The notes under the pieces: model-generated
What the model was told of the DNA's origin: nothing
What the model saw: the letters and a program-made list of their open reading frames with translations, nothing else
The model's database searches: none
Shown here: positions 3,571 to 53,200 of the stretch, piece after piece
Layout: each line of letters opens with the position of its first letter
Position numbering within the stretch: the stretch's first letter is position 1
Program-made: the position numbers and the translations under genes
Source of the DNA: Carcharhinus amblyrhynchos
Taxonomy: Eukaryota
NCBI GenBank assembly: GCA_965287045.1
Contig: OZ336888.1
Coordinates: 10,602,001-10,666,000, forward strand
Direction of reading: 5' to 3'
DNA length: 64,000 nt

Positions 3571-3780
3571 TAAGAAGTCTCACAACATCAGGTTAAAATC
3601 CAACGGTTTTATTTGGAATCACAAGCTTTAGGAGCACTGCCCCTTCATCAGGTGAGTCTCACGTGATGAAGAGACAGCACTCTGAAAGCTCATGATTCCA
3701 AATAAACCTGTTGGATTTTAACCTGGTGTTGCGAGACGTCTTCCTGTGCCCATCCCAGTCCAACACCGGCATCTCCATGC
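3571..3780. mobile_element. Penelope-derived fold-back element, family A, with two decayed hammerhead motifs
   Basis: Inverted arms of ~85 bp plus the 3' tail cccagtccaacaccggcatctcc. TSD ccaaaatat(c/t)gg at 3559-3570 and 3781-3792. Confidence 0.8.
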
Positions 3781-4769: not shown

Positions 4770-4978
4770 TAAGAAGTCTCACATCACCAGGTTAAAGTCC
4801 AACAAGTTTATTTGGAATCACAAGCTTTCAGAGTGCTGCTCCTTCCTCAAGTGACTGACCTGATGAAGGAGCAGCACTCCAAAAGCTCATGACCCCAAAC
4901 AAACCTGCTGGACTTCAACCTGGTGTTGTGAGACACCTTGCTGTGCCCATCCCAGTCCAACACCGGCATCTCCACATC
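4770..4978. mobile_element. Penelope-derived fold-back element, family A
   Basis: Same inverted arms and tail as 3571-3780. Contains ctgatgaaggagcagcactccaaaagctc, a hammerhead-like motif with GAAA mutated to AAAA. Confidence 0.75.
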
Positions 4979-18970: not shown

Positions 18971-19268
18971 GGTGGCACGGTGGCATGTAGGGCATTGGTT
19001 AGCACCAGGGACCCAGGTTCAATTCCGGTCTCGGGTCACTGTCTGTGTGGAGTTTGCACATTCTCCCCATGTCTGCGTGGGTTTCCTCCGGATGCTCCGG
19101 TTTCCTCCCACGCTCCAAAGATGCACGGGTTAGGTTGATTAGCTGTGCTAAATTGATCCTAGTGTTAAGCGGGGTAAATATGTGGGTTACGGGCATCGGG
19201 CCTGGGTGGGACTCTGGACTCGATGGGCCGAATGGCCTCCTTCTGCACTGTAGGGATTCTATGATTCT
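18971..19268 (+). mobile_element. HE1-like tRNA-derived SINE, tail type B (CR1-like). Other copies: ~7660-7987(+), 9385-10005(nested pair), 13620-13935(-), 20525-20792(-), 22630-22940(+), 35700-36016(-), 51074-51363(+), 52903-53200(+), 54495-54812(-), 55958-56125(+), 62002-62317(-)
   Basis: Same head and core as type A, but the tail gactcgatgggccgaatggcctccttctgcactgtagggattctatgattct resembles the CR1 3' ends in this window. Confidence 0.85.
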
Positions 19269-21046: not shown

Positions 21047-21141
21047 GAGATGATGTGGATATGCCGGCGTTGGACTGGGGTAAACACTGTGAAAAGTCTG
21101 ACAACACCAGGTTTAAACCTGGTGTTGTCAGACTTTTTACT
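21047..21141. mobile_element. Minimal family-A fold-back element inserted into a family-B element
   Basis: Tail plus a perfect 46-nt palindrome at 21092-21137. TSD gagaaagag at 21038-21046 and 21142-21150. Confidence 0.8.
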
Positions 21142-24100
21142 GAGAAAGAGAAGAGCCAATGTTTCATGACTTCATCAAAGCGCATTTGCCATATTCTTTG
21201 GTATTTTGTATGGGGTGGGAGGCACTGTCACAAGTGGGAAAAATTAGTGCAGCGGTGCTTTGACATACAAGTGGTATAAATCAGTCGTAGTACATGCAAA
21301 TTTTCCCGGACAAAACTCCAATGCAACTGTGTGTTGTTACACTGGAAATACATCGAAACTTCGTAGGATGTTCTGAAAATGCTCATTGAGACTTTAGGAT
21401 TGAGCAGTTCACATCCATCTATACAATCTCAAGGAGTGTGGCACAGTGGTCAGCACTGCTGCCTCACAGCACCAGGGATCCGGGTTGGATTCCCGGCTTG
21501 GGTCACTGTCTGTGCGGAGTCTGTATGTTCTCCCTATGTCTGCATGGGTTTCCTTCGGGTGCCCCGGTTTCCTCCCACGCTTCAAAGTACATGCTGGCTA
21601 GGTGCATTGGCCATGCTAAATTCTCCCTCAGGCGTCAGAGTGTGGCGACCAGGGAATTTTCACAGTAACTTCATTGCAGTGTTAATCCTACTTGAGACTA
21701 ATAAATAAATAAACTGCTGTGCACTTTTCACATTTTCCAAAGCGACCTCTAAGATTGTTAATTAGTGGCAAACTGTCAGCTTTCGAGACACACAGTAACT
21801 CGGAACTCAACTGAGACGGCTTAAAATGATTGCATTAAGGACTCTCACAAGAGACACTGAAGGACAGAGACAGACTCATTGATTCAAAGCTTGTTATTGG
21901 GGCTTTTAGTACCCAAGCTTGTCTTCCACAGGGCTGCCACATTCAGGAACTCTCCGCTAGGCTGCCAAAGCCTATGAAAGCCTCCATAACTGATAGTAAA
22001 GTCAATTAACTCTCCACAGCCTCACAGAATTACATCCAAAAGCACTCCAAGCTCCCAACTATTTCTTCGTACATCCTGAACGCAACAAAAAACAGAAATT
22101 AGACACATGGCCAGATGGCCGTATAATAAAATGAACAAAATAATAACATAATCTAAGCCTTCAATTATAGTTTTCACGGAATCTGATCTCCAAAATAATA
22201 CTAAAAATCCCAAAATAAATGTAATATATGTTACAAATCAGTAGCCGTGATGCTACATTACTTATGAAATGACATAACACTCCTGTGATAATAGCATATC
22301 CACAACGCAATGAACAATAACACTTCCATTATAGAAGTGATCATTCGAGTCTGCATTTGTTGTCTGTCAAATCTCTCTGTTTTACTTCAAAGTGTAAGTG
22401 TACAGTCCCTCTAACAAGCCTCAGAGCTCACCCAACATTTATTTAACAGCAATTAGGCTTCATCATAGCCTGAAAGGGATACACGTCTACATTTTAGTCA
22501 AAACTTTGTGTTTTCTTTTACATGGAATAATATCTGTACAATATGGGGCATCTCCCTGACTCGGAATGGGCAATTTCTGGGGATATCACAAAAAGATTGG
22601 TCTGCAGTTACAGCAAAATTTGGGGGACTACAGCATCGCAGTGGTTAGCACTGCTGCCTCTCAATGCCAGGGACCCGGGTTTAATCTTGGCCTTAGGTCA
22701 CTGACTGTGTGGAGTTTGCACATTCTCCCCATGTCTGCATGGTTTTCCTTTGGGTGATCCAGTTTCCTCCCACAGTCCAAAGGTGTGCAGGTTAGGCAGA
22801 TTGGCCATGTTAAATTGCCCCTTAGTGTCAGGAGGATTAGCAGGGCAAAAAACATGGGGGTCACAGGAATAAGGTGGAATTGTTGTCAGTGTAAACTCGA
22901 TGGGCTGAATGGCTTCCTTCTGCGCTGTAGAGATTCTATGGGACTATCAAGTGTTTAGAAAGGCAGATAGAACGATGATGTTTATTGCGAAAACAATGGA
23001 ATACTGAGACTGTTCAGGGCCTTGGTGAGACCACATCTGCCAGACTGCATATAGTTTTGGTCTCCATGTTTGAAAAAAATATGTAATTGAAACAGTTAAT
23101 AGAATCCGACAGTGCAGGAGGCGGCCATTTGGCCCATCAAGTCTGCATCGACCACAATCCCAATCAAGATCCTATTCCCATAACCCCATAAATTTACCCT
23201 AGCTAGCCCCCCCAAAACTAAAGGACAATTTAGCAAAGCCAATCCACCTAACTCGCACATGTTTGGATACAGAAGGTTTTTTTGACTTACTCCTGGGACT
23301 GAGGGCCTATCTTCTGAATAAAGGTTGAACAGGTTGGGCTTGTAACCTTTTGGTGATTAGAAGAATGAGCTGTGATCTTATTGAAATATGTTAGGGTCTT
23401 GAGGGGATTGGATAGGGTGGATATCAGAAAGACGTTTCTCCTTGCTGGGGAGAGGTTTGAAATGGCGACACCGTTTAAGACTAAGATGGGGATGAGGAGG
23501 GAGGACTCTCTCAGGAGGTCATTAATCGTGGGATTCCCTCCCCCGGAAAGCAGTAAAGTCTGGATCATTGATTCTTACCATAGTTAAGTTAGGAATATTT
23601 TTGATGGAATAGGGTGAAGGTTATGGAGAGTGGCGGGGGAGACAGACATGAGGAGTTGAGACCACAACCAGATCAGCCATGAGCTTATCAAATGGCAGAC
23701 AAGGCTCAAAGGACTAAGTGGCCAACTCCAGCTCGTAAATCTGCTCCCATAATGCAAGTCTCTACATTTCCTGTCTATCAAATCACACCTGATGTGTCAC
23801 ATCCTTTTTATTATTCATGATTTTAAGCCAAGTAATCAAAACTTTCAACATCTTCCTTTTCCACTTGTAGGTAAAAGGCCATTACGTACACATCTTTGGA
23901 CACTAGAGGGCAATTTAGCATGGCCTATCCACCTAACTTGCACATTTTGGACTAACAAAAAAAAACTTAATTGTCTGGAGGTTTTTTTCCCCACACAAAG
24001 TTATATCTAAATCCTTGAATAACAATGTGTCCCCTCCCCGGCATCCACTTTGCAACAAGGGGTGAAAGCGGGTGACATGGTGCAACTGTTGGACCTACCG

Positions 24101-28489: not shown

Positions 28490-29480
28490 CAACAGCATAA
28501 TATTTCCAAGTTCAGGGATGACACAAAGCTAGCTGGGAATGTGCATCATAATGAAGTTGCAAAGAGGCTTCAAGGGGATTTGGACCAGATGGAAAATAAG
28601 TTAGAAAAATCAGAGATGATCCACTTTGGCAGACAGAACAAATGCGCAGAGAACTTCTTAAATGGTGTTTAGAAAGTGCAGATGTACTAAGGGATCTGGG
28701 TGTCCTCGTCAATAAGTTACTGAAAGCTAACGTGCAGGTGCAGCAAACTGTTAGAAAGGTAGATAGTATGTTACTCTTTATCACAGGAGGATTTCAGTAC
28801 AGGAGTAATGAAGATTTACTTCAATTGTATGGAACATTGGTTAGACTGCACCAAGAATACTGTGTACAGTTTTGATTCCCCCTACCTCAGGGAGGATATT
28901 ATTGCCATAGAGAAAGTGCAACGAAGGCTCACTAGACTTGTGCCTGGAATGACAGAACTGTCCTATAAGCAGAGATTGAGGAAACTGGGTCTGTATTCTC
29001 TAGAGTTTGGAAGAATAAGAGGTAATCTCATTGAAATCTACAAAATGCTTACAGGGCCAGAGAGGGAAGATGTTTCCCTTGGTTGAGGAGTTCTAAAATC
29101 AAGTGGAAAAATTTTAAAAAATGGAGGAAGCCACCTAGGACCAAAATGAGGAAAAAACTTTTAAAGTGTTCCGAATCTTTGGAATTCTCTGCCCAAGAGG
29201 GCTGCGGAACCTGAAACTAAATAAGAAGTCTCCCAACACCAGGTTAAAGTCCAACAGGTAAACCTGTTGGACTTTAACCTGGTGTTGGGAGACTTCTTAC
29301 TGTGTTTACCCCAGTCCAACGCCGGCATCTCCACATCATGAACCTGAAACTAAAACAGAGTGACAGATTTCTGGAAAGGGATACGGGAAAAGGGTGGGAA
29401 AAAGGACACTGAAGAGAACAATCAGCCTCGGTCGTATTGAATGGCAGAGCAGGCTGAACGGCCTACTCCGGCTTCTATGT
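28490..29480 (+). mobile_element. Decayed CR1 LINE 3' portion. Other CR1 fragments: ~1-590, 1380-1630, 4085-4300, 6760-7220, 8360-9380, 10630-11760, 22950-23750, 25350-25825, 30005-30275, 43310-43615, 46110-47250, 51965-52315, 53680-54110
   Basis: ISKFRDDTKL (RT FADD region), LRDLGVLV, YCVQF and EKVQRRLTRLVPG..LGLYSLE, with stops and frameshifts. Confidence 0.8.
29222..29339. mobile_element. Short family-A fold-back element inserted in a CR1 fragment
   Basis: Perfect 38-bp inverted arms with a 2-nt loop (29222-29299) plus tail. Perfect 15-bp TSD gaacctgaaactaaa at 29207-29221 and 29340-29354. Confidence 0.85.
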
Positions 29481-33177: not shown

Positions 33178-33527
33178 CCCCCGGACACCAGAGACAGGCC
33201 GCCCCACTCCGGACACTGGGACTGGGACTGACCCTGACCCGCCGCCCCACTCCGGACACTGGGACTGACCCACCGCCCCACCCCGGACACTGGGACTGGG
33301 ACTGACCCGCCGCCCCACTCCGGACACTGGGACTGACCCGCCGCCCCACTCCGGACACTAGGACTGGGACTGACCCGCCGCCCCACTCCGGACACTGGGA
33401 CTGGGACTGACCCGCCGCCCCACTCCGGACACTGGGACTGGGACTGACCCGCCGCCCCACTCCGGACACTGGGACTGGGACTGACCCGCCGCCCCACTCC
33501 GGACACTGGGACTGACCCGCCGCCCCG
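33178..33527. repeat. GC-rich minisatellite, 31/37-bp unit gccgccccactccggacactggg(actggg)actgaccc, about 9.5 copies
   Basis: Tandem units are directly visible and differ by presence or absence of a 6-bp actggg module. Confidence 0.95.
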
Positions 33528-33539
33528 GTCATTTTTTAC

Positions 33540-33700
33540 CTTTTGCTGCCGCCACTTCCGCAATTTCAATTCAAATTCCCGCTTCCGGCTCCGCACGGCG
33601 CCTGATTGGCTCCCGAAATAAACCCACAGTGCACCGGGCTTGGGGGCGGGGCCAGCGCAAAGGGGCGGAGCCAGGGCTCTGGGGGCGGGGCGCAGGTGAA
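33540..33700 (-). promoter_or_regulatory. CpG-rich TATA-less promoter and probable non-coding exon 1 of the ARHGEF39-like gene
   Basis: Three GC boxes (33643-33651, 33662-33670, 33682-33691), a CCAAT box on minus (33605-33609), and two ETS cores CGGAAG on minus (33553-33560, 33582-33588). CpG density is high, and a candidate donor AAG|GTAAAA lies at 33540/33539. Confidence 0.7.
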
Positions 33701-33788
33701 GTTGCTGGGGTTTGTGTGGGGAGTGAGTGAGTGAGGGCAGACCGCCCTCCTCCATCTCCCCATCCCCTGGCCCCTGTCCTGTTTCACA

Positions 33789-33920
33789 GTAAGAAGTCTC
33801 ACAACACCGGGTTAAAATCCAACGGGTTCATTTGGAGCCAACGCCACTAGCTTTCGGGGCTTTTGCCCCTTCACCAGGTGAGTGGGGGAGTTCTGATCAC
33901 AAACAGGGCATTTAAAGGCT
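33789..33920 (-). mobile_element. Single arm of a family-A Penelope terminal repeat next to the promoter
   Basis: Begins gtaagaagtctcacaacacc. The minus strand carries ctggtgaaggggcaaaagccccgaaagctagtgg. Confidence 0.7.
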
Positions 33921-34850: not shown

Positions 34851-36509
34851 CCCGGAATTGAATATTTGTTGAATAAAAACGTAGCTCTCGGTCAATCTGG
34901 AAATGAATCAACCAAATTCATAGTAAGTGCACCGCGTGTGGCTGAGCTTGGCTGATGGCAACGGAGTACAGCTGTTTTACTAAATGAAACAGATCTCTTT
35001 GGACCTTTGCAATGGACCCCTTCAAGAACTAATTACTGAACAAATGTAGAAGGGAACTAAAAATAACTGCTTGAAGGACAGAGGCAGGTATGTATGAACG
35101 TATCCAAAGTAATTCCCGACATAATTACCTACCCTTTGATATTTACACAGTATGATCTCTGATTAGATAACAGAGTTAAATTGCGTACGAGCCAAAGAGA
35201 GTGAAAACAGTGGGCCATAATAAATGTAATTAATAGGAGCCTCCCAATGTAAACAATAAACTGATATGTGTTTAAAGAATAATTCTAGGCTGTTGAATGC
35301 CTTTTAGTAATGAAAGTCATAAAGAAGGTTAACAAGTGCATCACTACCTTATTTTATTAAACACTTTTTGGTGGTCTTTGATTAAACCGCAAATGTTCGA
35401 AAATGAGCTTTTTTTTGGACACCAGGATTGCTGTCATATAGTTTAAAGCTTTAATTTGTCTTATTCAGTGTTATTGAAGAAATAGAAAAAATAAATCTGA
35501 CAACTTTGGGTATCTTGATGCTTCTGCTCCATATCGAATAGCTGATTGGATTTCTGTACTTTTGGTTTTTGTATGTGTCTGAAGATGTCATCTACTTAAG
35601 ATGGAAGATGAGTCAAGAGATCAGGAGATCTCTGCATCTGTACATCCTCAGCTGACAGGAACAGACTGACCCAGTGTTCTTTCCGCACCCAATCCTGTAC
35701 TATAGAATACCTGCAATGTAGAATGAGGCCATTCAGCCCATCGAATCTGCACCAACCACAATCCCACCCAGGCCCCATCCCCATAACACCATGCATTTAT
35801 TCTAGCTAGTCCTCCCCTGATACTCAGGGGCAGTTTAGCATTGCCAATCCACCTAACACGCACATCTTCGGATTGCGGGAGGAAACCGGAGCACCTGGAG
35901 GAAACCCACGCTGACGTGAGGAGAATGTGGAAACTCCACATGGGCGGTGACCCAAGCTGTGAATCGAACCCAGCTCCTTGATGCTGTGAAGCAGCAGTGC
36001 TAACCACTGTGCCACTGGTCTGCCCGTATATGTCACATTCTGGCTTAGTAAACCTTGTTGCACCATTAAAACCCATGCTTTTTTTAAATTGTCCCAGCCT
36101 GCATTGCGCTTGAGAAGTTGGTACCAAGCCTCCTTTCTTGAACTGCTGCAGTCCGAGTGCTCTAGACGCACTCATGTTGTACCACTGTTTTTGAGCTAGC
36201 GACAGTGGAGGAGCAACATTGTAATTCCAAATCAGAATGCTGTTTGACTTGGAGGGAAACTTACAAATGGTGGCATTTCTATGTGCCTACTGCCCTTGAG
36301 CTTCTAGGTGGTAGAGGTCACAGGTTTGGAAGTTGTTGTCAAAGGAGTTTTGAAAAGCTTCTGCAGTGCATCTTATAGATGTTGCACAGTTTTACCATTG
36401 GGCAACAACGGTGAAGAGAATGAATGTATAAGGTGGACACATTATCCATCAAATAGGCTGCTTTATCCTGGATGGTGCCAAGTTTCTTGAATGCTGTTGG
36501 AGCTGCACT

Positions 36510-37380
36510 TACGATGTGGAGACGCCAGCGTTGGACTGGGGTAAACACAGTGAGAATTCTCACAACACCAGGTTAAAGTCCAACAGTTTATTTGGTAGGA
36601 AACACCACTAGCTTTTGGAGCGCTGCTCCTTCATCAGGTGAGTTCTGTTCACAAACAGGGCATATAAAGACAAACTCAATTCACAGAGTAATGATTGGAA
36701 TGCGAGTCTTTACAGCTAATCAAGTCTTAAAGGTACAGACAATGTGAGTGGAGGGAGAATTAAGCACAAGTTAAAGAGATGTGTATTGTCTCCAGACAGG
36801 ACAGTAAGTGAGACTTGGCAAGTCGTGGGGGCTACAGATAGTGTAACATGAGCCCAAGATCCCGGTTGAAGCCGTCCTCGTGTGCGGAACTTGGCTATCA
36901 GTCTCTGCTCAGCGACTCTGTGCTGTCGTGTGTCGTGAAGGCTGCCCTGGAGAACACTTGCCCAAAGATCCAAGGCCGAATGCTTACCCGAATCAGAGGC
37001 TGAGCAGAGACTGATAGCCAAGTTCTGCACATGAGGATGGCCTCAACCAGGATCTTGTGTCCATGTCACACTATCTGTAACCCCCATGACTTGCCTGGAC
37101 TTGCAACATCTCACTAACTGTCCTGTCTGGAGACAATACACATCTCTTTAACCTGTGCTTAATGCTCTCTCCACTCACATTGTCTGTACCTTTAAGACTT
37201 GATTAGCTGTAAAGACTCGCATTCTAATCAATATTCTGTAAATTGAGTTTGCATCTTTATATGGGCTGTGTGTGAATAGAACTCCCACTCACCTGATGAA
37301 GGAGCAGTGCTCCGAAAGCTAGTGGCGTGTGCTACTAAATAAACCTGTTGAACTTCAACCTGGTGTTGTGAGACTTCTTA
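36510..37380. mobile_element. 5'-truncated Penelope-like retroelement with inverted pseudo-LTRs and a GIY-YIG endonuclease C-terminal remnant
   Basis: Inverted arms of ~400 bp. Minus-strand peptide SVLQGSLHDTRQHRVAEQRLIAKFRT and plus-strand AEQRLIAKF..HEDGLNQDLVSMSHYL* resemble the Penelope ORF C-terminus. TSD tggagctg(c/t)act at 36498-36509 and 37381-37392. It interrupts a CR1-like LINE. Confidence 0.85.
37289..37325 (+). ncRNA. Minimal type-I hammerhead ribozyme motif (intact core) in a Penelope pseudo-LTR
   Basis: UCAC-CUGAUGA-A-GGAGC(AGU)GCUCC-GAAA-GC-UA-GUGG contains both core boxes, a 5-bp stem II, stem I UCAC/GUGG and palindromic stem III AGCU. Predicted cleavage is after 37321. Confidence 0.7.
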
Positions 37381-40300
37381 TGGAGCTGTACTCATCCAGG
37401 CAAGTGGAGAATACCCCATCGCACTCCTAGAAGGTACATTGTGGATGCTGGACAAAGCTTTGGGAATTCAGAGGGTGAACGAGTCACTGTGGGATTCCCA
37501 GCTTGTGACTGGGCCAGCATGGTAGCATAGTGGTTAGCACTTCTGCTTCCTTCATCCTTCATGGTGATAAAGGTTATGGCCCCATTCTCTCTCCATGGAT
37601 GCTGTAAAGCCTGCTGGGATTTTTGATTTATATCAATGGTCTTGTTATGTTTCTGGTCAACAGCAACCCCCAGCATGTTGGTAGTGGGGAATTAGCTTTG
37701 TTACCATCAATCATCAAGTGAAGATGGTTGGATTTTAGCTTGAGGCAGATGGCGATTGCTTTGCACTTCTGTGAAAGGATGAATGTTGCTTGCCACTTAT
37801 CAGCCCAAGCCAGAAAGACAGTCCGTATGTCTTGCTGCACATGAAGACAGATTGCTTTAGTAATTGAGGAGTTGTGAATGGCGCTAAACATTAGGTAATC
37901 ATCTGCGATCATCTCCACTTCTGACCTAATGATGGAGGGAAAGTCATTGGTTGGGTCTAAGACACCACCCTAAGTCAGCAGTGATGTCCTGGGACTGAGA
38001 TGATTGATCTCCAACAATTACAGCCATCTTCCTTTATGCCTGCAACCAGTGGAGAGCTTTCCCCCTGATTCCCATTGACATCAGTTTTGCTCGGGCTCCG
38101 TGATGCCATACTCAATGAAATGCTGCCTTGATGTTAATGTCAGTCACTCTCGCCTCTCCTCTTGGGTTCAGCTCCTTTATCCATGTTCCAACCGAGGCAG
38201 TAATGAGGTCAGGAGCTGAGTGGGCATGATAGAATTCAAATTTAACATAAATTAGCAGGTTACTCCTGAGTAAGTGCCATGAGATAGCACTGTTGACATT
38301 TTCCACCACTTTACAGATGATCAAGAGTAGGCCGATTCGGCAATAGTTGGCTGGGTTGGATTTGTCTTGCTTTTTTCGACAGGACTTAGCTGGACATTTA
38401 TGAGTAGATGCCAGTGTTGTAGCTGTACTGGAAGACTTTGACAAGGGGCCTGGTGAGTTCTGGAGCCCAAGTCATCAGTGCTATTGCCAGAATCTGGTCA
38501 AAGCCTTTGTGGTATCTAGGGGATCTCAGGAGGGCGTCTGTTTGGTTTATCCACACCATATGCTGGCTGAAGATGGCTACAAATGCTTCAGTCTTGTCTT
38601 TTGCACTGATGTGCTGGACTGCCCCATCATTGAGGATGGGGATATTTGTAGAGCCTCCTCGTCCAGTGAGTTGTACAATTGCCCACTGCTGTACACGACA
38701 GGATGTGGCAGGACTACAGAGCTTCGATCTGACCCAGTGACTGTGGGGGCGCTTAGCCCTGTCTGTCACGTTTTGCCTCCACAATTTGGTCTCTGGTAGT
38801 CCTATGTTATAGCTTCACCAAGTTGACATCTCGAGGTCGGCCCCGGACATCGGCACTCTCGACAAAACAGTTAATGAAACTCAAGGTTGATGTACCTTTC
38901 TGTAAATGGTTTAATTCAACAGGGCTTACTGTTTGAGACTTATTAATTCATTTTGGGCATTTAAAAGGGAAGGTTTTATTATTGGTCCTTCTTATTTTTA
39001 AATAATATCAGAAATTAATGCACTTTAATAAGTAACTTTCTCACTGCTTGGAATGACTATACAGAATAACAGCATTGTTGTAAACAATTACAGTTTGTTA
39101 TCCTCAAAATTATGTAAAATACTCAGCAGCTGACGTTTCAGTCAAATAGTACAATGAAGAAAGAACATGAACAGTCATTTTGACAATAGCCTTTCTCGGG
39201 TGTTTTGTTTATAGGTTTAAAATGAATGGTGTAATTGCTCACGGATAGGCAAATTAAAAGATAGTGACAGCAAATTAGTCTTGTTCGTGAAAATAGAGAT
39301 TAAAGTACTTAACTGTACTCAAAGCTATTCCATGCTGCATTTGAAAGTTATGTTTGTTGGCTAAGGCTTAAAGAGATACCAAAATAATAAATGTAGAATT
39401 ATTGATAGTATTCATAGGAGCAGAAGGTCATTCAAACCTTGGTGGGTGGCACTGGGGCACAGTAGTTAGCATTGCTGCCTCACTGCGCCAGGTTCCAAAT
39501 TTGATTCCTGACTTGGGTCACTGTCTGCATGGAGTTTGCACATTCTCCCCATGTCTGTGTGGGTTTCCTCTGGGTGTTCCTCCCACAGTCTGAAAGATGT
39601 GCTGGTTAGATGCATTGGCCCAAACAAAACTGGAGTGTGGTGACTAGGAGAATTTCACAGTAACTTGATTGCAGCGTTAATGTAAGCCTTATTTGTGACA
39701 CTAATAAATTAACTTTAACTTTACTATTCAATTAGAAATTTTAGTCACCTGTACCTTAACTCAATTTACCCACCTTGATTCTATATGCCATAACACTCTG
39801 ATCAAAGTAAAATCTACCAATCTCAACTTTGGAATTTGCAAATGACCCAGGCTCAACAGCTTTTGGGTGAGTGAGTTCAGATTCCCCTTACCCTTTGTAC
39901 AAAGACAATTCAGCTGACTGTGTGTCTTTTTAACTTTCAGGATATATCTAATAATTATTTAAAAGCATGTCTAACTAACCATGCAGTTTTTTGCCATTAC
40001 CTTCCAAGCTTCAACCATTCACAGGTGTCTCAAAATACTTAGTCCAATTCCCTTTCCTACTCTGCACTTTGGCTTCCATCTATCCCAACTCTCCCAAGTT
40101 ATTCATTTCCAACATTTTCATCTCCTGCTTCCTTGGTCCTTTCATTCCATTCTTGCTCAAGTCTTTCTTTTGGCTCCCATGCCAGTGGAAAGCTTTGCTT
40201 AACTTCTTGAAAGATTGCAGTTCTGTTTTGCAAGCCTGCACTCACCAACCTCAGGATAATGACCTTTGATCCATCTAGTCTCTCCAACTCCTACCTCGTC

Positions 40301-47700: not shown

Positions 47701-48247
47701 ATGCCTCAAGCTTAAAATCGTTTCACCTTCATGTTCACCCTGAATTCACTTCACATTCTCTCCGTGGTCTCTTCTAGTCCCTTACGCTGTCTGCACTTAA
47801 CTACCACACCTCATGCTCTCCATTATTTGTATCCCTTTGTCTCAGCGTTATCAGCACAGCTTTCAGCCATCTGGTTAGTATTTTACATGTTGCCTGCCAT
47901 ACCATCTTCTTCCCGCAAGTTAAAAGTTTTCTCATCTTTATTTCCCCAACAAAGCCTTTGGTCACCTCTCAAATCCCTCTCTTCCTGGCTTGGTGCTGAT
48001 TTTCCATATCATTATCTGTGGACATGTCTGAGTTCGAGGTATGAAGTAATTGTGTGCTCGTCAGGTAGATAAATGATCTGTCTTCAGTAAAAACTGAGGG
48101 TGTGATCTTACCAGCTCGCTGCGTCAGTTAATCGTTGCGCCCTCGCATGATGTTCCCGGCACTGTTTGGCTGGTGCAATTGGCTTGGTGCCCAGAAAGGG
48201 TGCAAAGCTGATTTTAAAAAGTCAAGCCCTGTTTTGCATTATATCAC

Positions 48248-48414
48248 GATGTGGAGATGCCGGCGTTGGACTGGGGTAAACACAGTAAGAAGTCTCACAA
48301 CATCAGGAGACCAGAACTCTCCACTCGCCTGACGAAGGGGCAAACCCTGAAAGCTTGTGGGTTTACTATCAAATAAACTTGTTGGACTTTAACCTGGTGT
48401 TGTGAGACTTCTTA
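48248..48414. mobile_element. Family-A fold-back element with asymmetric arms
   Basis: Tail, short left arm and longer right arm. Perfect 14-bp TSD ttgcattatatcac at 48234-48247 and 48415-48428. Confidence 0.85.
48325..48360 (+). ncRNA. Minimal type-I hammerhead ribozyme motif (intact core)
   Basis: UCGC-CUGACGA-A-GGGG(CAAA)CCCU-GAAA-GC-UU-GUGG. Confidence 0.6.
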
Positions 48415-50152
48415 TTGCATTATATCACCAAGTGCCATAGCCACACTAGGGGCATTGGAGACCGTTGAAGGCCCTTGTTGGGCAGGGGTGTGGTGAGGCA
48501 CTGCCCATTGGGTACCATAACTGCGCCAGGGCAGTGCCAAGGGGCTGGGCCCTGAGAAGGGCTGGGACCTTAGTGGGTGTGTGGCTATGACTGTGGGGGT
48601 ATGCAGAGGGGGGGGGTGATGGTCAAGGGGGAGCTTCTATTCAGGGTGGGGTTGCGAGGGGAAGAGCTCTACAAGGGGATGTGATCGGCAGGCAGTACGT
48701 GATGGGCAAAGGGTGGGGCATGGGGTGGTGGTTGGCTGCGGAGGGAATTGTGACAGGGCGCACATTGAGAAGATCCATAGCACCGCTGCCTCTCAGCACC
48801 AGGGAGCTGGGTTCGATTTCCAGTGTGGGTCACTGACTGTGTGGAGTCTGCATGTTCTCCCTGTGTCTGCGTGGGTTTCCTCCGGGTGCTCCAGTTTCCT
48901 CCCACAGTCTGAAAGGTATACCAGTTAGGTGCATTGGCTATGCTAAATTCTGTCTGTGTACCCAAACAGGCGCTGGAGTGTGTCAACCAGAGGATTTTCA
49001 CAGTAACTTCATTGCAGTGTTAACGTAAGCCTACTTGTGACAAAATAAAATAAACTTTAAAAGCTTTGATGCCCTGATGCTGGCAACCTGATTTGCTGTG
49101 GTGGTGGGGGGGAGGAGAATAATTCACTACCACAGATAATGAAGAGCTAGGCAGGGGTCCAATGTCTGTGGACAGGGGGTGACAGGCAGTCACCCAGTGC
49201 TCTCGAAGATTGGTGCACCGTGCATGAGTGCTCTGAAGCTGGTTTTAGTCTGGTTTTCAGACTTGTACAGTATCTAGAACTCTAGTAAGATCACACTCTT
49301 AATGTTCACTCTAATTTCACTGTCTTCCTCAAGATGCTGAAAAGGGTAAAGCCTCTTTCTCTGTGATACCTTAACACAGAATTGACATGAGAAGTATAGG
49401 CGGTGACTTCTCTCCGCTGACTTCAAGCTGATGTGAGTATAGCACAGGCACATTACTGTCCATCTTTTGAAGATATAATGAAACATGATGACCTTAGAGA
49501 ATGGTATCTCTTGTGATTAAATTAGATGAACAGCCATTCACAGGTTGTCAATTATCTGGGATGTTTGTCCACGCAAGTACGGATGCCATTTACTGAAAAG
49601 TTCAAAGACATCCCTCAGTCTCTGGCATCCAATGTCAAACTGACCAAATTAAATAGATTGGAATGGCTTGATTCATTGATCTTGTCAAAGACTTTGACCT
49701 ATCAGATGGGTCCCCATCCCGCATAATGACAAAATAAAACCATGAAGTACTTCCTAAACAATGCGTGCTTCCACTATGTGTTGAGTTGTCTTAATTAACC
49801 AGATCGTAACGTGTACTTCATACAGTTTATAAAATGGTTCATCTTAGTCACAAAGATACCCCACCCCCACCCCCATCAGCGCAATTAAAATTCCACAGCA
49901 CCGAGTGGAATGCTGCGACAGGATGGAGCGAAGCTCTGAAACTAATAGTAGCGTCAGAGTGTGATCAGCGAACTCTTATATTAACCACATATCAAATCTA
50001 GAATGTTCTGCTCTTTTCAACTTAGCACGTCAGCACGTGATGCATTTGCCGAGGGAGGCCGTGCTTTCGTTTGATACTCAGCGATAAATTGATTCTGACA
50101 AACAAACAAACAAAAAAGGAAAAAATAGATAATATGAATTAATGTAGACAAG

Positions 50153-50229: not shown

Positions 50230-53200
50230 GTATGTAATTGGTTTATTGAAAAATCATCACAGAAGCATGAGTTGAATTGTGATGACAATACAAATATAAC
50301 AAGTGTTTAGAAACAACATAGTTACTGACAACCATTAAAATAAAAAATAAAGTGTAAAATAATAAAAGGATTTATCAAAACATGAACACACACTTAATTA
50401 CAATATGTTGCAAAATGCAGGTCTCTTTAATTTACAAGAATGAAAATGAAAGGTCTACTGCGTTTTGTATTGAAGTTATAGATCATATGTGTCACACTGA
50501 ATTTGTTGAGTTCTCAATCATTTGCATACTATTTATGAGTTTTATAAAGTAGGGAATTTAGTTTTGGTATAGCTGTGTTAATGGGCTCCTCAATATTATA
50601 ATAACAAAACCATTGTACTTTCATCATAGTTATTGATGTCAATATTTTTTTGAAGAACATGTTGATATCCCATGGCAATCCAGCATGAGCAATCAAACTC
50701 ACGTGAAAACAGTAGCTTTCACATCTCACTGTGAGCATGATAAAACATCACAAAAGCAAGATCAAACAAGGGAGATATTAGAATAGATAACTAAAAGTTT
50801 GTAGGGTAGATTTTTACCTTGATGGATGACAGAGAGGCTGAGAGAGGTGAAGAGGTTTAGGGAGAGAATTGTAAAGCTTAGGGCCGAGGAAGCTGAGGCA
50901 GTGGTAGAGTGATTCAAGTGCACACGAGGCCAGAGTCGGAGGAGAGCAGAGATCTCAGAGGACTTCGAGCTGGAGGAGGTTAGAAAGAAATTGATAGACA
51001 AAGTCATGGAATGACTTTGAAATAAGGAGAAGAATCTCAAAATGGCTCATTTTCTTAACAGCATGACCTTCATGGGTGGTATGGTGGCACAGTGGTTAGC
51101 ACTGCTGCCTCACAGCGCCAGCGTTCCATTCCTGGCTTGGATCACTGTCTGTGTGGAGTCTGCATGTTCTCCCCATGTCTGCATGGGTTTTCTCTGGGTA
51201 CTCCAGTTGCTGCCCACAGTCCAAAGGTGTGTGGGTTGGGTGGATTGGCCAAACTAAATTGCTTGTTAGTGTCAGGGGGATTGGCTTGGGTAAATGCATG
51301 GGATTACGGGGATAGTACCTGGATGGGATTGCAGTCAGCCTCCTTCTGCAGAGTGGGATTCTATTATCCTATTTGCTAAAACTTTGCTGAAGGAATATCA
51401 TTTTTGTTTGGTGCTTTTCTCACTCCGTCCTGTCGCAGCATTACGCTCGGTGCTGTGGAATTTTAATTGTACTGATGAGAACGTCACTGCCTTTATGAAC
51501 AGAAATGGCCATCCATAGCTGAGTGCCCAACACATGGCCACAATGGAAGCAGCTATAATGAGTCTTTCTGTCCTGCCCAGCCACGGGAATCGTGGTGGGT
51601 GGGACACGGACACGGGATTTTCCGGTTTCGATGCAAGCGCGGCTGCAAAATCCTGCCCTTTCAGTTACACCAGTTTATCATTCTTCCCCCCCCCCCCCCC
51701 ACTTCCTGCTATAGGGTATGTGTTACAGTTCGGTAGGTACAAAGAAGTCTTCATAGCAATACATAAATAAATAGTAAGTCTTTATTGACTCTTGGAACTA
51801 TTTACAAATATAAGTAAATGGTACAAACTGGGAGCTGCCTCCATGCTTGCTGCTACACACATCTCTGTCCAACAGTAGACTGACCTCCAGGTGCGGGTCA
51901 TTTGCTGTCATATGTTGTATTGTATTAGGTCCCACATGAACCACATATGTACCAGAGTCTTGTAAGATCATAAAATATAGGAACAGAGTGAGGCCATTTG
52001 GCCCATCAAACCTGCTGTTCCATTCAATCATGGCTGATATGATTCTCATCTCCATTCTCCTGCCTTCTCCCTATAATCCTTCATCCCCTTATTAATCAAG
52101 AATCTTTCTATCTCCGTCTTAAAGACACTTAATGACTTGGCAACCCTCTGTGGCAATGAGTTCCACAGATTTACCAGTCTCTGGCTGAAGAAATTCCTCC
52201 TCACTTCACAGTTAAAGGAGTGTCCCTTCACTCTGAGGTTGTGCCCTCGAGTTCGAGGGCACTAGTGGAAACATCCGCTCCGCCTCCACTCTATCTAGGC
52301 CTCTCAGTACTCGGTAAGTTGCTTTCCTCAACAGTGTTTACTTTTGAAGCTTGATTTCATGGTGGTTTAGGGTTGCCCTCTGGAGCGGTCGCCATTAGCT
52401 ACCCGTTTAATGAGGCACACACGCTGCTGTCTGTCTTTGTGATTGAGGAGGTCATGGAGGAAGAGGTCATGCCATTGACAGCTGCCTGGCATTCAGAGAC
52501 AAGCGCACCTTCAGCTAAATCAAATCTGTTCAATGTAAAATGAGTCTTTCTTTGGCAACTGCATCAGTTCATTTATTTGTTGGCGTGCAGTTCTTTCTCC
52601 ACAACTGATAGTGCTCCCACCAGGAAAATATTTCACTCCTCCTCACAGGCATTTCCCCCCCTTGCCCAAATCACACCACAGACGTCAAATCAGTCATGAA
52701 AAAAATTTAAAGGAAATTGGGCTTTGCTGCTGTTTTTTAAAACTTATCTCCTCCCTTTCGATATCTACGGTTGTGTGTCCTTCCAGTCCAAACCTCCAGC
52801 TCCTCCTCATTTCACCATCAGAGGTCGGAAGTTCTGAACTGGCTGACAGATGCTTTCCAGCAGGAGAATTGGTCCACCTTTAAGCAGGCAAGCCTTTGAG
52901 CATGCACAGTGGTTAGCACTGCTGACTCTCAGCACCAGCCACCCAGGTTCAATTCCTGCCTCGGGTCACTGTCTGTGTGAAGTTTGCACATTCTCCCCAT
53001 GCCTGCGTGGGTTTCCTCCTGGGGCTCCGGTTTCCTCCCACAGTCCAAAGATGTGCGGGTTAGGTTGATTGGCCATGCTAAATTGCCCCTTAGTGTCAAG
53101 GAGATTAGCAGGGTAAATGTGTAGAGTTATGGCAAGTGGATCTGTGGTGGGTACAGACTTGATGGGCCGAGTGGCCTCCTTCTGCACTGTAGGGATTCTA

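Follow-up and report, generated by a model that had tools for sequence, protein, structure and literature searches.

What kind of element is the inverted sequence at positions 36510–37380 of the 64,000 nt of Carcharhinus amblyrhynchos DNA analysed here (the window), and can the hammerhead motif in each of its arms cut RNA? Both arms are 5'-truncated 3' ends that face outward and are joined head-to-head on opposite strands, being 82 % alike over 855 columns, gaps included, and 91 % over the best 163 nt. A 12 bp duplication is present on both sides (36498–36509 and 37381–37392, both + strand, the left copy with one mismatch compared with the right), and the sequence is therefore a single insertion; in the control for the finder of such target-site duplications (TSDs), a match was obtained in 1 of 295 shuffled flank pairs. 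The left arm (36553–36983, − strand) carries the C-terminus of a GIY-YIG endonuclease (36872–36982, −), a pseudo-LTR, a hammerhead (36605–36641, −) and a conserved end block, and is prolonged by a 'tail' of approximately 40 nt (36510–36552, −) that only this arm possesses and whose end falls on the start codon (ATG) of the long ORF of full-length copies. The right arm (37000–37380, +) has the short, tail-less end and contains the second hammerhead (37289–37325, +). A junction with about 10 nt of filler (36984–36999) separates the arms, the left of which extends approximately 60 nt further 5' than the right, and the endonuclease remnant presents a frameshift in a CA run in both. Loose contig ends from three DNA runs were found at 36513, the tail end (557–776 contigs), and at 37380, the short end (628–829 contigs), and contigs of two DNA runs entered the element from the flank by 22–28 nt only, below the bridging rule. 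The insertion is very probably a single decayed Neptune-type Penelope-like element (PLE) copy consisting of two head-to-head truncated 3' ends, in which the hammerheads are passengers and likely inactive. By itself the locus is unimportant, as it is one among tens of thousands of decaying copies.

The Penelope origin and the link between the motif and a GIY-YIG ORF remnant, both put forward in a preliminary description of this DNA, were borne out by a near full-length relative at locus L107, which contains RT, linker and GIY-YIG, and by the TSD. The remnant in the window is identical to the L107 copy at 29 of 34 residues (E 5e-17), and the latter has a 630-aa frame with an RT domain (Pfam RVT_1, E 7e-10) and the C-terminal endonuclease block VYLIRC...WYIGET. 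A single ORF with RT and C-terminal GIY-YIG, as expected of endonuclease-bearing (EN+) PLEs, is recognizable in this family, the examined copies being split into several frames. The order pseudo-LTR, ORF, pseudo-LTR was found at L107, where element ends lie at 2544(−), 5204(+) and 8218(+) and two same-strand pseudo-LTRs are 3 kb apart, and the accompanying inverted 5'-truncated copy with its one-sided tail is seen in the inverted pairs. Between RT and endonuclease the L107 linker reads CHSNLCKTC (C-x4-C-x2-C), and we call the element Neptune-type from this CX2-5CxxC linker, not from a tree; the linker marks Neptune and is also found in Nematis and Naiad (PMC8557442). A non-LTR retrozyme was discarded as an identity: retrozymes of this kind, whose type-I hammerhead is related to that of PLE pseudo-LTRs and which were found in the one cartilaginous fish sampled (bioRxiv 10.64898/2026.07.22.740005), are same-strand tandem repeats lacking coding remnants, whereas 36510–37380 is an inverted two-arm insertion with an ORF remnant.

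The insertion belongs to a known class, that of standard inverted PLE copies with minimal hammerheads, and the element class, the inverted layout, the one-sided tail and the second motif on the opposite strand are all already in print. As in the EN+ PLE insertions described elsewhere (PMC3846280, PMC8557442), the copy is inverted head-to-head, 5'-truncated and flanked by a TSD, has a tail at one end only (30–40 bp in those elements) and presents TATA/Inr-like motifs; TSDs of the shark family are mostly 12–15 bp, compared with 8–10 in rotifer PLEs. The TATA-like TTTATAT of the right arm (37256–37262, +) is followed approximately 30 nt downstream by an initiator-like CCACTC, which is also the 5' side of hammerhead stem I, and from these letters we infer a candidate promoter role for the pair, a comparable TATA/Inr pair having been described in rotifer pseudo-LTRs (PMC3846280). 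This particular family may be undescribed in sharks: a literature search for shark reports of it gave nothing relevant, and sharks are absent from the examined text and supplement file 2 of PMC4209133, a paper whose supplement file 1, like the supplements of the 2026 retrozyme preprint, may bear on the point.

Read letter by letter, the right motif is intact, as had been claimed. Stem I comprises 4 bp (UCAC, 37289–37292, with GUGG, 37322–37325), and the core consists of CUGAUGA (37293–37299), an extra A at 37300 following A9, GAAA (37314–37317) and then GC-U-A. Stem II comprises 5 bp (37301–37305/37309–37313) and includes G10.1–C11.1, while a palindromic AGCU stands where helix III would be and the cut is predicted after CUA at 37321. 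The motif presents the core (CUGANGA, GAAA and UH) and stems I and II of a minimal type-I hammerhead, together with the extra base after A9, G10.1–C11.1, palindromic 15.1–16.1 and covarying stem II of PLE minimal hammerheads. With those of metazoan PLEs (Cervera and De la Pena 2014, PMC4209133) it shares the absence of a helix III loop, palindromic 15.2–16.2, the extra base between 9 and 10.1, G10.1–C11.1, a short stem I, high variability of stem II (4–5 bp in the shark) and opposite-strand copies 100–700 bp apart; for the metazoan motifs a dimer requirement and low activity are described, which may also apply to the shark motif. In agreement with the earlier view that a monomer could not close helix III, the intramolecular A15.1–U16.1 pairing probability was 0. 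None of the 25 Rfam matches at E≤10 was to a hammerhead family, the minimal form being devoid of helix III. The mirror copy with G12A was located at 36641–36605 (−), its mutation being a CpG transition at 36616; G12 is the general base of the hammerhead (PMC6155905), and this motif is predicted to be inactive as an enzyme.

The same group is represented elsewhere in the window. A hammerhead at 48325–48360 (+), previously listed as another intact core, lies in an inverted insertion (48246–48415) with no hammerhead in its left arm, and its core letters are indeed intact, but a G–U replaces the conserved G10.1–C11.1 pair (C11.1U). The decayed copies noted at 3.6 and 4.9 kb correspond to short inverted insertions with two decayed hammerheads each (3571–3777, with a 12 bp TSD, and 4770–4978), and a solo element end at 33785–33917 (−) carries a hammerhead with A6G. 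Two further inverted insertions are tail-only, at 21052–21139 (arm of 24 nt plus tail, 13 bp TSD) and 29221–29337 (arm of 33 nt plus tail, 15 bp TSD); in Rfam they gave miRNA-like hairpin scores below gathering thresholds. The preliminary count of about ten traces from two families has to be replaced by eight traces in five insertions plus the two tail-only palindromes, all window copies belonging to a single related group in which stem II occurs in many variants, and only one of the eight traces, that at 37289–37325, is a fully intact hammerhead. A loose CTGATGA-N-GAAA pattern matched the window three times, with 2.14 matches expected, and was no better than chance.

Dense seeding of the genome with the motif, proposed from the window, was confirmed over 2.92 Gb. 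The intact-core pattern was found 38,610 times (approximately 13 per Mb) and once in the control, an exact 29-mer of the element end 65,837 times, and an exact 35-mer of the window's intact motif in 364 copies (control 0). A profile built from the window copies had 27 matches in evenly spaced stretches totalling 400 kb and none in the same control after reversal, and 0.8 Mb of such stretches contained 60 ends, of which 35 extended to the motif; the core was intact in 13 of these, and the stems as well in 8. Young stem II types that recur numbered at least 14. Compared with the approximately 4,000 motifs published for coelacanth and 9,000 for Xenopus (PMC4209133), the density is several times higher, the descriptors being different, and we found no sign of an effect on the host. 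The family is a large natural data set with near full-length copies, with which two questions become testable, namely the role of the PLE hammerhead and how PLEs build inverted, one-tailed insertions. Its sequence is also present in sequencing-run contigs of other organisms. Motif pairs recur at approximately 52–76 kb spacing at G000 C1 5.34–5.53 Mb and C1 0.5–1.6 Mb, and insertion flanks are duplicated between loci L074/L094, L079/L102, L081/L103 and L078/L098, a pattern that points to recent segmental duplications.

Selection on the motif was evaluated by covariation and by inherited variants, both counted over related copies rather than independent events. In 113 insertions, the stem II pair 10.2–11.2 was Watson–Crick in 107 (GC 83, AU 24; shuffle maximum 87) and the pair 10.3–11.3 in 97 (GC 53, AU 44; shuffle maximum 73), while stem I showed one-sided changes only and no two-sided change in the same set. 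A variant occurring in both arms of one insertion was taken as inherited from the template. In 60 pairs, the 16 core positions had 7 such variants out of 905 and the 12 free positions 175 out of 666, core conservation being inflated by a parser that kept only arms with a recognizable core. In the deep pairs (25 of 35, those passing an identity filter), inherited variant cells numbered 3/385 in the core and 249/3321 in the upstream pseudo-LTR, and variant columns 0/16 and 45/142, respectively (p 0.006); the core is more conserved than its flank, the opposite of one outcome that the preliminary description had named as refuting its reading. A near-invariant core together with compensatory changes in stem II indicates that the motif is selected at the level of the source elements.

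After insertion the pattern is different. Alongside the 364 intact copies of the window's type we counted 162 with G12A and 203 with C11.1U, the lethal change being no commoner than the milder one in the other half of the same CpG, and changes private to one arm fell on G12 (15), C11.1 (12), G8 (10) and N7 (16) in 42 pairs. These counts indicate that inserted copies decay neutrally, with symmetric CpG loss. The same lethal change was present in both arms for A6G once, G8A once and G12A twice in 60 insertions, for which dead templates that are still mobile, double CpG hits or conversion are alternative explanations. One young recurrent lineage (L035, L073, L110, L123 and L209) has an A–C mismatch in the second pair of stem I, beside the cut site, and is widespread despite it.

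In a read-through RNA of the insertion the motif is predicted to be buried in a hairpin with the other arm, with a mean pairing probability of 0.99 and 0.00 for stem II. With the right arm alone, the probability of stem II was 0.05–0.16, and it rose to 0.99 if the RNA started 6 nt upstream of C3. Nearest-neighbour energies, which omit tertiary contacts and protein, gave −19.7 kcal/mol for the double hammerhead, compared with 2 × −13.5 for the monomers and −38.6 for a different dimer, a low predicted stability that would agree with the low activity described for motifs of this type (PMC4209133) and with the lizard PLE hammerhead, which cleaves only with protein (PMC11167929). Since the arms lie on opposite strands, one RNA holds one sense motif only and no dimer can form in cis.

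These results bear on the proposal that intact copies scattered through the genome could form pairs and cleave host pre-mRNA. The genome-wide number of intact cores, the 13 (8 with stems) found among 35 motif-bearing ends in 0.8 Mb and the in vitro dimer cleavage reported for such motifs (PMC4209133; review PMC6765202) would provide the material for it; however, among 120 intact cores the intact pairs within 5 kb were opposite-strand in 29 cases and same-strand in only 3, one of them inside a single element, and the dimer interface would consist of only 4 bp and two stems of 4–6 bp. Neither the burial of the motif, nor the G12A in the left arm, nor the missing excess of the lethal CpG half supports host cutting, the reported activity is low and in the lizard requires the element protein, and no exon of a host gene was recognized around the element, Pfam having given no match for the 8 of 36 long window frames scanned. 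We consider host cutting very unlikely. Processing of the element's own RNA by the hammerhead is plausible, and we propose that the ribozyme would be a working, dimer-dependent and probably protein-assisted part of the active element's RNA, with the partner motif supplied by the 5' and 3' pseudo-LTRs of a full-length copy or by two RNAs in one particle; selection on source elements would maintain it, the RNA template for cDNA would be mostly uncut, and the inserted motif would then decay neutrally through CpG sites. A motif kept chiefly for structure or pairing, as an RNA dimer contact or a 5'-end fold that rarely cuts, would also be consistent with uncut templates and with a palindromic AGCU that is invariant among the inherited variants, and in the lizard, hammerhead mutants insert normally in vitro and RNA-seq shows no read ends at the cut site (PMC11167929). 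Nevertheless, the unpaired catalytic C3, U4, G5, A6, G8, A9, G12, A13 and A14 are as conserved as the palindrome; catalysis is therefore favoured, and a chiefly structural role appears rather improbable.

The state of the template was assessed by nested counts, genome-wide, in one young subfamily, distinct from the older ones to which the window's own copy belongs. The pattern that begins 4 nt on the 3' side of the cut matched 14,026 copies, that beginning at the cut itself 13,493, and those beginning 4 nt and 10 nt on its 5' side 13,072 and 12,620; the loss is 3.8 % in the first step (4 nt), 3.1 % in the second (4 nt) and 3.5 % in the third (6 nt), with a background loss of 3.6 % over 13 nt. 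At least 93 % of the young-subfamily copies reaching within 4 nt of the cut site cross it. Because the counts are smooth across the cut, the RNA copied into DNA was mostly uncut, and an accumulation of 5' ends at this site was rejected for the subfamily; a mild excess in a small sample, where 12 of 177 arms begin within −1 to +4 of the cut, was unconfirmed by the genome-wide count. Further upstream, 37 of 111 and 25 of 61 5' ends, in two sets of loci, lay within 30 nt upstream of C3, but they were spread out, and a sharp transcription-start spike was likewise rejected. The 5' ends of arms are approximately four times denser in these 30 nt than further up, with a local peak 4–8 nt upstream of C3 and some 30 nt downstream of the TATA-like motif; this enrichment may reflect RNA starts or microhomology joins.

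The geometry of the inverted insertions was determined from 98 unique inverted pairs, of which 93 had one tailed and one short end, 5 had two tailed ends and none had two short ends. All 81 TSD-bounded pairs had exactly one tail, with a TSD of 12–15 bp in 72 of them, while none of the five two-tailed pairs had a TSD and two of these are internal pseudo-LTRs that continue into the ORF. Arm lengths could be compared in 71 of the 81 pairs, 10 having been dropped for a junction gap outside −40 to 60 nt, and they were correlated (Spearman 0.79); the short arm reached further 5' in 35 pairs and the tailed arm in 19, and the two were equal, that is within 3 nt, in 17. Among 39 young pairs, the two arms agreed in stem II type in 31, compared with a mean of 3.1 after shuffling; of the eight discordant pairs, three combine types that are each found again at other loci.

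Since either arm may be the longer and 93 of the 98 pairs have exactly one tail, the simplest inference is that two cDNAs arise from one double nick. The element protein would nick both target strands 12–13 bp apart and each nicked 3' end would prime its own cDNA, one starting at the short site and the other at the tail site approximately 40 nt further on, after which both cDNAs would stop early and be end-joined head-to-head. The protein of Poseidon PAc from the lizard Anolis (Frangieh et al. 2024, PMC11167929) cuts and extends both target strands, as would be the case for the shark element, starting at two adjacent sites that define the tail; the two systems share these start sites, a hammerhead slightly upstream and an uncut RNA template, while the shark element is Neptune-type and its ORF starts at the tail end and not inside stem II. 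A search on twin priming and Penelope found no title dealing with PLE mechanism, and the inverted layout has been ascribed to self-priming or to endonuclease resolution (PMC3846280, PMC8557442). Self-priming by fold-back, either of a single cDNA or of an antisense template, has been proposed for rotifer PLEs (PMC3846280) and would explain the strong correlation of arm lengths, the many junctions that overlap by 1–4 nt and the private variants usually common to both arms, and it still fits the 36 pairs in which the tailed arm is equal or longer. Simple fold-back is unable to give both length orders, however, because a tail-less cDNA cannot be the template for a tail, and the tail-less arm is the longer in 35 of 71 pairs, in some by hundreds of nucleotides (for example 47 vs 335 and 528 vs 2976). 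Furthermore, three TSD-bounded insertions (L110, L189 and L215) hold two different recurrent motif types, and we regard fold-back as unlikely. Several short copies with a common junction just 5' of the motif could suggest a hairpin family of the MITE or retrozyme kind, non-autonomous and mobile as a whole, but junctions range from 24 nt to 3 kb across the 71 pairs, the genomic relatives of the window copy run on into the ORF without its junction, and 36510–37380 contains no tandem monomer array; such a family was rejected as extremely improbable.

Returning to the two cDNAs from one double nick, a protein dimer might hold two element RNAs and copy both at once from the two start sites, their palindromic hammerheads pairing into the double hammerhead inside the particle, so that every inverted insertion would record a two-RNA particle, a speculation to which we give little weight. 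If it were true, the ribozyme would mediate genome dimerization in the manner of retroviruses and, under the control of the protein, would also cut, but only after priming, and the one-tail rule, the matched arm lengths, the occasional mixed arms and the uncut templates would therefore follow. The residual interest of the family lies in the counted geometry of its inverted pairs and in this two-RNA model. In one full-length copy (L100:1529, L101:1510) the 5' and 3' pseudo-LTRs differ in stem II type and the inverted arm matches the 3' type, in keeping with a template switch or a chimeric source. The junction of L194:473–686 contains three tandem copies of a 10-nt sequence that in the element immediately precedes the hammerhead, which suggests repeated re-priming by the RT.

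The window has further features. A GC-rich segment at 33520–33700 (−) has what we take to be two ETS-like sites (CCGGAAG/CGGAAG), a CCAAT box and three GC boxes, and presumably resembles the TATA-less promoter of a leftward gene. Next on the − strand come a putative splice donor of a first exon, near 33540, and a 31/37-nt tandem repeat (33190–33526); the solo PLE end at 33785–33917 is located approximately 100 bp upstream of it and the insertion at 36510–37380 approximately 3 kb upstream. Frames near 46–47 kb presumably derive from a LINE, of which they look like a remnant. A tRNA-derived SINE family is abundant in the window (for example at 18977–19187, 22639–22849 and 52907–53117), and we assume its copies to be similar to shark HE1 / V-SINE, of the cartilaginous-fish type.
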